Source of the DNA: an uncultured Bacilli bacterium
GTDB lineage: Bacteria > Bacillota_I > Bacilli_A > RF39 > UBA660
DNA length: 64,000 nucleotides
Direction: 5' to 3'
Assembly: GCA_934086935.1 (NCBI GenBank)
Contig: CAKOIQ010000003.1
Coordinates: forward strand, 5,528 to 69,527
Shown: positions 56,780-57,961 of the stretch, piece by piece
How the letters are laid out: every line of letters starts with the position of its first letter
Position numbering within the stretch: the first letter of the stretch is position 1
Position numbers and translations under genes: made by a program
Notes under the pieces: model-generated
Told to the model about the DNA's origin: nothing
What the model saw: only the letters and a program-made list of their open reading frames with translations
Database searches by the model: none

Positions 56780-57961
56780 ATGGAGTCACAAGTTCAAAAT
56801 GTTAATATTGATTTAATTATACCAAATAGATTTCAACCAAGATTAGCCTTTGATGAAAAAGCATTGAATGATTTAGCTGAATCTATTAAACAACATGGAA
56901 TTATTCAACCTTTAGTTGTTAGACAATTAGCCGGTAGGTATGAAATTATAGCAGGAGAAAGAAGATATAAGGCAGCAATTATAGCTGGTTTACAGAGTGT
57001 ACCAGTAATTGTTACAAGTTTGTCTGATGCTAAAAGTGAAGAAGTGGCTTTAGTTGAAAATATACAAAGAAAAAATTTAAGTTCTATTGAAGAAGCAAGA
57101 TCTTATAAAAGAATGTTAGACAAAGATAATTTAACTCAAGAGCAATTAGCAAAAAAATTAGGTTTATCTCAGTCAACAATTGCTAATAGATTAAGATTAT
57201 TAAACTTAAGTGATAACGTTCAAAATGCATTATTAAAAGAAAAAATAAGTGAACGACATGCAAGAAGCTTACTTCAAATTAATGATAAGTTACAACAGGA
57301 CGAGATTTTAAATAAAATAATTACTGAAAGATTAACCGTTAGACAATTAGATGAGTTAATTAAAAATAGATTAGATTCAAATGTCACTGAACCGGAAATG
57401 CCAGTTAAACAAGATATTGTACCAAATGAAGTAGCAAAGTCAGAACCTGAATTGTTACCGATTGAAAGTTTAGATACAACTTTAAATAGTCAATCTGAAT
57501 CTTTAGAAAACGTGTCAGATTTAGATGTAAATTCAACTGCATCAAGCGAAGATTTAAATGGAGAAGATAAATCTGCTACTGATGAAGAACCAATGAATAA
57601 TATTTTGAGTTTTTTACAAAGCTTTAATAATTCAACTCCATCATTAGATGATGAGCCGGCAAACCTTCAAACATTTGATGATGATATCTTCAATGAAGGA
57701 CATAATGTTGATGACTCAGTTGAAGAAGCAAAAGATTCTTCAGAAGTGTTGGATTTAGATAATATTAAAAATTCAAGTGTATCAGATGAAAATCAAGTAA
57801 AACCGGATAATAGTCCAATAATTATATCGGGAGATATAAATTCTTTAAAGAAAGCATATCATGATTTACAAGATGAAGCAGAAAAAGCAGGTTTTAAAAT
57901 CAGTATGGAAGATTTTGATTTTGAAGATTTATATCAAATGATTATTAAGATTGATAAGTAG
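56780..57961 (+). CDS. ParB/Noc-family CTP-dependent DNA-binding protein (ParB vs Noc unresolved)
   Basis: 393 aa. [25 protein letters not shown] (ParB box / CTP pocket) and HTH [24 protein letters not shown]. An acidic low-complexity linker of about 145 aa follows, then a C-terminal dimerisation-like segment. No parA/soj gene is adjacent. Confidence 0.85.
   Translation: [393 protein letters not shown]

Follow-up and report, generated by a model that had tools for sequence, protein, structure and literature searches.

Almost all work on Noc concerns Bacillus and Staphylococcus, and in those species its action is defined by an N-terminal membrane helix and by scattered binding sites. We analyzed a 64-kb stretch of DNA from an uncultured Bacilli bacterium (the window), which represents the oriC region of a Firmicute with 25% GC and in which a gene of the ParB/Noc family lies directly after rsmG, with the position of soj-spo0J taken by a convergent gene for a penicillin-binding protein (PBP). 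The N-terminal helix of Noc is a membrane-targeting sequence that is needed for function (Adams et al. 2015; Jalal et al. 2021); its motif is extremely conserved, and the helix is weak, avidity-dependent and replaceable by an unrelated amphipathic helix (Adams et al. 2015). In Staphylococcus aureus, which has Noc and a separate ParB but no ParA, Noc acts at the origin and controls replication initiation (PMC5540599), and parA, parB and noc have been inferred in the ancestral Firmicute origin cluster (Garcia et al. 2021). Compared with these systems, the window gene is, as judged by its sequence, a variant Noc, and its family forms a large, well-supported sister clade of classic Noc. The explanation that we consider probable is that it encodes a cytidine triphosphate (CTP)-dependent clamp of the Noc subfamily that loads at the Noc-binding site (NBS) of an array of ParB sites (parS), beside ParB, with an acidic arm as its effector, and that it contributes to organizing or tethering the origin and not to nucleoid-wide occlusion.

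The predicted protein resembles Noc of B. subtilis and G. thermoleovorans (TIGR04285; structures 7NFU, 7NG0, 7OL9 and 6Y93) in its ParB/Srx CTP-binding domain, in a helix-turn-helix (HTH) domain with glutamine at position 173, arginine at position 201 and a permissive basic residue, in its Noc-type C-terminal domain and in its location directly after rsmG; the presence of a conserved, perfect canonical NBS in the window is a further likeness. Both CTP motifs are intact: the ParB box GERRYKAA, already recognized in an earlier note on this DNA, spans aa 59-66 (GERR at 56954-56965), and ENxQR is present as ENIQR at aa 93-97. The residues G59, E60, R61, R62, E93, N94, Q96 and R97 are invariant across 150 family members, chosen as the best representatives of 50%-identity clusters, and AlphaFold models the N-terminal ParB/Srx domain with a predicted local distance difference test score (pLDDT) of 85-97.

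Whole-domain similarity does not discriminate between Noc and ParB (the scores are 189 bits for Noc of G. thermoleovorans, 179 for Spo0J of B. subtilis and 176 for Noc of B. subtilis), and we therefore relied on signature residues, the C-terminal domain, hidden Markov model (HMM) scores, phylogeny and gene context. The NCBIfam Noc model TIGR04285 scores the window protein at 274.6 bits, compared with 181.6 bits for a generic ParB profile, and its top PDB matches in sequence and in fold are Noc structures (7NG0, 7NFU and 7OL9). The recognition region and the helix that follows it (...ISERHARSL) carry the Noc signature, where Spo0J has SRPHIANHLRLL...SMGHGR, and the AlphaFold DNA-binding domain superposes on the Noc-NBS structure 6Y93 with a root-mean-square deviation of 1.4-1.7 Å, as opposed to 2.5-4.4 Å on the ParB-parS structure 6S6H. 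An HMM built from the last 60 residues of 34 classic Noc proteins matches the C-terminus of the window protein (24.8 bits, E 1e-7) and 137 of the 150 family members, while an HMM of the ParB C-terminus matches neither the window protein nor any family member (0/150). This domain is modeled as a helix and two strands with a pLDDT of 92-96 and is 92% identical to that of the sister species.

Phylogeny led to the same placement. In a neighbor-joining tree of 159 distinct core sequences from the fetched loci (197 columns, 100 bootstraps), the long-linker family and classic Noc are each monophyletic in 98/100 replicates, and both of them, together with two Erysipelotrichaceae Noc, are separated from all 52 ParBs present in the tree, a split recovered in 98/100 replicates when up to three misplaced taxa are allowed. 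Chromosomal ParB/Spo0J (B. subtilis Spo0J, 6SDK) is alike in fold and CTP motifs, with about 42% core identity, but differs in having R173 and G201 where the window protein has Q173 and R201, as well as an LGxGL ParA-activating peptide and another C-terminal domain. The window protein lacks an N-terminal extension and with it any LGxGLxxL peptide, and there is no adjacent parA.

Alignment with HMMER to the crystal-structure sequences of Noc and Spo0J places Q131, R137, N142 and R159 at positions 173, 179, 184 and 201, so that the recognition region and the Q/R/N/R register that the earlier note had assigned stand unshifted. The protein thus combines Q173 and R201 with a basic residue at position 179, and it does not have the ParB-type pair of R173 with G, S, T or C at position 201. 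Jalal et al. 2020 (PMC7383237) showed that Q173 reads adenine 1, that R201 makes contact with the C6:G-6 pair, and that basic residues at 179 and 184 touch phosphates only, one of them being sufficient. In the scan of 160,000 variants in the same study, about 91% of NBS-specific variants had K/R at 179 or 184 and about 19% had it at both, R173 was invariant among parS-specific variants, with no Q173 variant in that class, and dual-specificity variants mostly carried T or S at 201. By these rules, Q-R-N-R is a predicted NBS-specific combination and not an intermediate, and the window protein is likely to be NBS-specific. In this regard, the earlier note had taken the match to Noc at three of four positions as a possible sign of a dual-specificity or intermediate ParB/Noc, a reading that finds no support, since Q173 and R201 with a single K/R at 179 or 184 are enough and since N, S or T at position 184, which is N in the window protein and K in classic Noc, is the norm across a very large clade. 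Among the 150 cluster representatives, 105 read QKNR, 16 QKSR and 8 QKTR, while the window protein and its sister species read QRNR. The Noc-type C-terminus, relatives that carry parA and parB as well, and the purity of the DNA sites, both described below, also speak against an intermediate.

One positional orthologue departs from this pattern. In a metagenome-assembled genome (MAG) of an uncultured Bacilli (L066:2205-4016, CANRLQ010000012.1), a 603-aa protein encoded after mnmG-rsmG, at a locus with no parAB, has the long linker, a GKFF motif and the Noc-type C-terminus, yet reads ...ISEGHARSLL, with ParB-type R173 and G201. It looks like a natural reversal of the ParB-to-Noc specificity switch.

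A scan of GTDB species genomes for the Noc-like gene gave at least 595 confirmed matches. Among the best 80 of these, about 70 are low-GC assemblies labeled uncultured Bacilli, Tenericutes, Mycoplasma sp. or Erysipelotrichaceae, and these are followed by Holdemania, Solobacterium and classic Bacillaceae Noc. The gene always lies after mnmG-rsmG. In 20 of 68 related species the order is rsmG-noc-parA-parB, and the parB is canonical (296 aa, N-terminus KRRALGRGLEELF, recognition region GKSRSHITNMLGLL...ISMGHARVL, which corresponds to R173/G201). The signature Q173/R201 with K179 therefore coexists with a canonical ParB in 20 species, which identifies the window gene as a Noc paralogue and not an intermediate. 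In the remaining 48 of the 68 species, each with at least 1 kb of downstream sequence, the Noc-like gene is "lone", and in 21 of these 48 loci the convergent PBP gene known from the window comes next; lone loci are thus frequent, and the arrangement is old. Collectively, the subfamily is a Noc paralogue of reduced-genome, low-GC gut Bacilli, and the public annotation of one named member reads "ParB/RepB/Spo0J family partition protein".

In two MAGs, an NBS with one mismatch, ATTTCCTGGGAAAT, precedes the start codon of the noc-like gene by about 65-80 nt (L031:9904-9917 and L033:9882-9895), which may point to autoregulation, and ATTTCCCGTGAAAT occurs between noc and soj in a Geobacillus (L082:11196) and a Bacillus (L083:11366).

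The family also departs from classic Noc at its N-terminus. The window protein begins 14 residues before the motif PNRFQPR, whereas about 25-50 further residues are present in classic Noc, which starts with MKxxFSRFFGLGEKE; among 34 classic Noc proteins from Bacillales and Lactobacillales loci, most have a start of this type and the rest a short hydrophobic or basic stretch. The short N-terminus is real, since an in-frame stop codon (TAG at 56762-56764) six codons before the ATG makes a longer one impossible; a ribosome-binding site, GGAAGG, lies ahead of the ATG. In agreement with the earlier note, the protein has no N-terminal amphipathic membrane-targeting helix (aa 1-10/15), and it also lacks the alpha-2 segment of classic Noc, so that its start is close to that of the engineered Noc N-delta-26. 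Family representatives range from 227 to 775 aa, and almost all of them have PNRFQPR within about 20 residues of their start. The whole subfamily is without the Noc N-terminal membrane helix and helix alpha-2.

The linker between the DNA-binding and C-terminal domains, which is short and basic in classic Noc, is a 145-aa acidic, disordered segment with an internal amphipathic motif in the window protein. Over residues 200-345 (146 aa), the net charge is -31, D/E/S/N make up 52% of the residues, and AlphaFold block means of 41-60 pLDDT predict disorder; this is the D/E/S/N-rich low-complexity stretch that the earlier note had described. An acidic linker is found in 142 of the 150 family members (median 190 aa, 20% D+E and 6% K+R). 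Both the absence of the N-terminal peptide and the long acidic linker characterize the family as a whole and are not peculiar to the window gene. In the Erysipelotrichaceae, the Noc proteins of Solobacterium (L079:9944-10762) and Holdemania (L078:9995-10771) are 258-272 aa long, with the signature QKNR and a linker that is basic, as in classic Noc; an N-terminal helix is missing from the Holdemania protein but may be present in that of Solobacterium (MRQSGKSILDIFTKQ). The N-terminal helix may therefore have been lost in one event and the acidic linker acquired in another.

Within the linker, an island at aa 265-305 is 76% identical to the 400-aa protein of the sister species, compared with 28-30% for the rest. 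The hydrophobic moment of aa 272-282 is 0.54, the highest in the linker (mean 0.24, sd 0.14), compared with 0.38-0.49 for the N-termini of classic Noc, and the only helix that AlphaFold places between residues 201 and 352 (aa 276-280) falls inside this motif. Across the family, a linker motif P-N-K-F-F-N-F-L-E-D-E-E-x-N-M occurs in 71 of the 142 members, the linker being unconserved elsewhere, and alignment identifies the window island as a diverged version of it. The family motif NKFFNFLEDEE resembles the classic Noc N-terminus SRFFGLGEKEE, as well as the N-terminal membrane helix of SepF. We infer that the linker motif may be a relocated or convergent membrane- or partner-binding element, a proposal to be taken with caution given its acidic surroundings. 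Readings of the motif as a beta-clamp-binding, FtsZ C-terminal-peptide-like or SSB-tail-like element were dropped for want of a match to the respective consensus motifs.

The window also contains DNA sites of both kinds. Four parS sites are perfect, and a fifth has one mismatch (0.3 expected by chance); the only NBS is perfect, and we estimate its chance expectation in the window at about 2e-4. These are the five good parS sites and the single NBS counted previously. All six sites lie inside 609 bp of one non-coding gap, a clustering absent from the earlier note, and the other 63 kb of the window contain no further NBS. The array is 15 kb from the Noc-like gene, on the other side of oriC, and about 9 kb from oriC. 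Two sister contigs allowed us to assess conservation, with a gyrA C-terminus 97.6% identical (L322) and TadA 92.9% identical (L322 and L299). Compared with L322, 92 of 96 parS columns and all 16 NBS positions are identical, whereas the spacers are identical at 319 of 463 positions (69%; Fisher 2e-11), and the NBS is conserved at 16/16 in L299 as well. This difference between sites and spacers indicates that both classes, parS and NBS, are under selection in the lineage of the window. At about 12 nt after the NBS, L322 has a perfect parS where that of the window has decayed (TGTATCACGT-TAACA).

The array also includes a palindrome, GCAAATTAATTTCAATAATTTGC, that is identical at 46/46 positions in L322, compared with 69% in the spacers, and that is located where the repeat unit of the L180 array, described below, has its NBS. 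A third protein-binding site is one possible reading of it, a derived relic of an NBS another. Outside the array, the pattern GCAAATTA-N7-TAATTTGC is not enriched in the window (5 matches, 5 expected).

Mixed arrays of this kind recur in the clade. A search of species genomes for pairs of perfect parS spaced by 85-115 nt returned at least 120 loci, of which 21 are low-GC; the array occupies the same gyrA-tadA gap, with both flanks visible, in 15 of these 21 listed low-GC loci, and in a 16th (L228) only the tadA side is visible, at the contig end. Among the 17 clade loci formed by these 16 and the window, six have a perfect NBS in or beside the array. In the circular 1.5-Mb Bacilli genome L180, six tandem 125-bp units each hold one NBS 42 nt before one parS; arrays contain up to nine NBS, and up to six within about 0.7 kb, as in L180. 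Similarly, a metagenome scan for a perfect 16-bp NBS 5-35 nt from a perfect 16-bp parS returned at least 120 contigs, with a median GC of 26%. The listed contigs show site strings such as PNPNPNPNPN (P, parS; N, NBS), and gyrA, tadA or dnaX is present on 116 of the 120 listed. Their NBS density amounts to 5.35 per kb within the arrays, compared with 0.053 per kb in the flanks, a difference of about 100-fold. By contrast with the arrays, 1.28 Mb of noc-centered clade loci hold four NBS and no parS. Perfect NBS are far above chance in the 25-30% GC genomes of the clade, and three MAGs have a perfect 16-bp NBS inside the dnaX coding sequence (L224:4859, L226:2700 and L230:5578), at a constant distance of 1031-1037 nt from where the tblastn match to dnaX begins; the dnaX of the window has none.

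The spacing and the purity of the sites are informative as to what reads them. In the listed metagenome contigs (L288-L407) and in L180, L217, L226 and L227, parS-NBS gaps peak at 10-13 and 19-21 nt (chi-square versus uniform, 5e-17), about one helical turn apart, with centers about 27 and 36 bp apart, which suggests a preferred relative face for two bound dimers. Judged on the shared backbone T-N-TTTC-N-CG-N-GAAA-N-A, all 92 sites of the 17 clade loci are of two types, 75 pure parS and 17 pure NBS, and the 120 listed metagenome contigs hold 340 parS, 286 NBS and 7 others, which makes 626 of 633 pure, with one true half-and-half hybrid. A single promiscuous reader should tolerate hybrids, so that two discrete classes point to two specific readers. 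Since the window protein has Q173, the two pure site classes lead us to predict that a separate, parS-binding ParB of the R173 type is encoded outside the window.

In this respect, our evidence favors the other suggestion of the earlier note, namely a Noc with its ParB partner encoded elsewhere, although the partner itself was not found. As that note had stated, there is no ParA at the locus: regular-expression and open reading frame (ORF) scans found neither a ParA Walker-A ORF nor a second ParB box in the 64-kb window or in the 5.7 kb of the source contig past its right end, and the same scans found no parA or parB near the gene in the fetched lone loci. The S. aureus arrangement is a precedent for Noc together with a ParA-less ParB, its noc and parB genes being presumably far apart, although the S. 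aureus protein is a classic Noc, unlike the window variant; we found no report of composite parS/NBS arrays in that species in the literature.

Taken together, these observations fit a scheme in which the window protein would dimerize through its Noc-type C-terminal domain and recognize the 16-bp NBS TATTTCCCGGGAAATA through the HTH (Q131, R159 and the permissive R137). CTP bound at GERR and ENxQR would then close the dimer into a clamp that slides onto flanking DNA, making it a second clamp on the centromere region, beside a canonical parS-specific ParB. The effector would probably be the long acidic disordered linker with its amphipathic motif at aa 272-282, which may bind the membrane or a partner weakly and in an avidity-dependent manner. 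The outcome would be that the origin region is tethered or organized, or that ParB, SMC or replication initiation is controlled, instead of genome-wide nucleoid occlusion; the NBS of classic Noc are scattered over the chromosome outside the terminus, whereas those of the window clade, in the origin-proximal DNA that we examined, cluster with parS near oriC. In this sense, RocS of Streptococcus pneumoniae and RicO of S. aureus are site-specific, origin-proximal DNA-binding proteins whose amphipathic helix bridges DNA and membrane and whose sites cluster with parS near oriC (bioRxiv 10.64898/2026.03.06.710092). The analogy is functional only, as RocS and RicO have unrelated folds, do not belong to the ParB family, form no CTP clamp and carry their helix at the C-terminus. 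By analogy, RocS, RicO and the part of S. aureus Noc in replication initiation may nevertheless serve as functional precedent for a role at the origin.

Several observations weigh against this explanation. In the linker motif of the window protein, neither the basic residue nor the FF pair of the consensus is present, and the motif sits amid acidic residues, which is unfavorable for binding to anionic membranes. The window array has one NBS to five parS, and the parS next to the NBS has decayed. The TIGR04285 score is below the curated cutoff of 315, which we attribute to interruption of the match by the linker, as model positions 1-202 of 255 are aligned, and the exact split of all Noc from ParB is supported in 39/100 replicates. 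All of the DNA that we examined is origin-proximal, and NBS scattered elsewhere on the chromosome are possible. Finally, a search based on an alignment of clade ParBs identified ParB in none of the 48 lone species and in 14 of the 20 parAB-positive species, among the matches listed (Fisher 3e-10). We do not read this result as absence, because the two patterns used were narrow, and would also miss the ParB of Holdemania, and because the comparison covers the matches listed, out of at least 600.

The strongest competitor, though in our view an unlikely one, is an ordinary nucleoid-occlusion Noc, with NBS over most of the chromosome and an internal motif that recruits DNA to the membrane, and with Z-ring assembly blocked over the nucleoid. 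The Noc-type profile score, structures, C-terminal domain and tree would all be as expected, as would the likeness of the family motif to the classic N-terminus; a heterologous amphipathic helix can stand in for that of Noc (Adams et al. 2015), and a few NBS do occur outside arrays, including those inside dnaX. What separates it from an origin-bound clamp is the distribution of the sites: such a protein should not find the rest of the window devoid of NBS, with only four in the 1.28 Mb of noc-centered loci, while arrays hold up to nine at roughly 100-fold enrichment, and the tight phasing with parS at 10-13 and 19-21 nt would be unexpected.

Somewhat less plausible still is that ParA and ParB have been lost and that the window protein, as the sole ParB-family protein, reads both parS and NBS. 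The absence of parA and parB from the window and the 5.7 kb beyond it and the result of the ParB pattern search would fit, and the lone L066 protein, back to R/G, implies a scaffold able to take over parS reading. Set against this are the specificity rules, under which R173 is invariant in the parS-specific class and no Q173 variant in the scan of 160,000 belongs to that class (PMC7383237), the purity of 718 of 725 sites over the clade loci and the listed metagenome contigs, the coexistence of the same signature with canonical ParB in 20 species and the narrowness of the ParB patterns. Last, a decaying or repurposed remnant, for instance a local transcription factor with no role as a clamp or in segregation and with the NBS as a relic, might account for the single NBS, its decayed parS neighbor and the degenerate linker motif, but we regard it as very improbable given that all CTP-motif and DNA-contact residues are invariant, the folded domains are 86-92% identical to those of the sister species, near-identical variants occur on several independent contigs and the NBS is perfectly conserved.

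Returning to the second clamp at the origin, it is tempting to go one step further and propose, as a bolder idea to which we give somewhat less than even chances, a "two-clamp centromere" in a large clade of reduced-genome Bacilli, in which a helix-less, Noc-derived CTP clamp with an acidic arm and its internal amphipathic motif loads at NBS phased to parS (gaps of about 11 or 20 nt) and works together with ParB to tether or insulate the origin, or to regulate ParB/SMC loading or the initiation of replication, and does not serve nucleoid-wide occlusion; L066 would then be a case of the reversed switch. If two clamps are indeed loaded side by side, the sharing or partition of DNA among ParB-family clamps, centromere tethering in bacteria without ParA, and the natural ParB/Noc specificity switch, including its apparent reversal, would become testable. 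The literature that we searched, whose coverage is incomplete, contained no description of Noc proteins without the membrane-targeting sequence or of mixed parS/NBS arrays, and the Noc variant of this clade and its composite centromere appear to be undescribed. Three points look new: the subfamily-wide loss of the helix, the conserved amphipathic motif in the linker, and the combination of parS and NBS in one array; taken by itself, the window gene is unremarkable within its clade. A very large branch of uncultured Bacilli carries a helix-less Noc paralogue, and the window protein goes undetected by the curated Noc model. Our results also correct the tempting but wrong reading of three out of four Noc residues as an evolutionary intermediate.

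Table 1. Coordinates of the Noc-like gene, its domains, its neighbors and the parS/NBS array in the window.
Feature	Position	Strand	Basis
Noc-subfamily ParB/Srx coding sequence, 393 aa	56780..57961	+	ORF, translation, NCBIfam Noc TIGR04285, best PDB matches Noc 7NG0/7NFU/7OL9
ParB_N/Srx CTP-binding domain, aa 4-96	56789..57067	+	Pfam ParB_N 1.6e-33
HTH_ParB DNA-binding domain, aa 98-197	57071..57370	+	Pfam HTH_ParB 2.7e-33, alignment to Noc/Spo0J structures
Specificity residues Q131, R137, N142, R159	57170-57172, 57188-57190, 57203-57205, 57254-57256	+	HMMER alignment
Acidic disordered linker, aa 201-345	57380..57814	+	composition, AlphaFold pLDDT
Conserved linker island, aa 265-305	57572..57694	+	sister-species identity
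Predicted amphipathic helix within island, aa 272-282	57593-57625	+	hydrophobic moment, AlphaFold
Noc-type C-terminal (dimerization) domain, aa 346-393	57815..57958	+	classic-Noc C-terminal HMM
rsmG (gidB), upstream neighbor	56026..56730	+	translation; Pfam GidB on identical contig
Class A PBP, convergent, in place of soj-spo0J	57983..59890	-	Transgly + Transpeptidase domains
Composite parS/NBS array, gyrA to signal recognition particle (SRP) RNA/tadA gap	40867..41475	.	site search
parS sites	40867-40882, 40992-41007, 41116-41131 (one mismatch), 41353-41368, 41460-41475	.	site search
Perfect 16-bp NBS TATTTCCCGGGAAATA, predicted loading site of the window protein	41195..41210	.	site search
Decayed parS TGTATCACGT-TAACA, 13 nt from NBS	41224..41238	.	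perfect parS in L322 at aligned position
Palindrome GCAAATTAATTTCAATAATTTGC	41073..41095; second copy 41316-41338; diverged copies near 40826, 41419	.	every copy precedes a parS by about 40 nt
Small SRP RNA, array flank	40694..40790	-	Rfam RF00169, 60.1 bits
tadA, beyond SRP RNA	40268-40690		translation
gyrA, other array flank	41501..44074	-	translation

As to gene order, dnaA, dnaN, recF, gyrB and gyrA lie on the minus strand of the window, and rnpA, yidC, jag, mnmE, mnmG, rsmG and the Noc-like gene follow one another on the plus strand; the ORFs, Pfam domains and translations agree with the succession of rsmG, ParB-family gene and convergent PBP gene given by the earlier note. The mechanical ORF of dnaA (48993-50480, minus strand) has 495 aa with a TTG start, whereas the gene called on an identical contig has 456 aa, and translation of the 39 additional N-terminal residues is improbable.

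The 25% GC lineage has kept sporulation-type genes, namely SpoIIR, SpoIID, an adjoining M23 peptidase and an AbrB/SpoVT-like ORF, and a ComK-family gene lies between dnaN and recF in the window. These sporulation-type and ComK genes are at 62710-63222 and 31087-31500 of the window and at L286:19520-20886 and 426-875 of the source contig, and the lineage that carries them has contigs of about 1.1-1.2 Mb.

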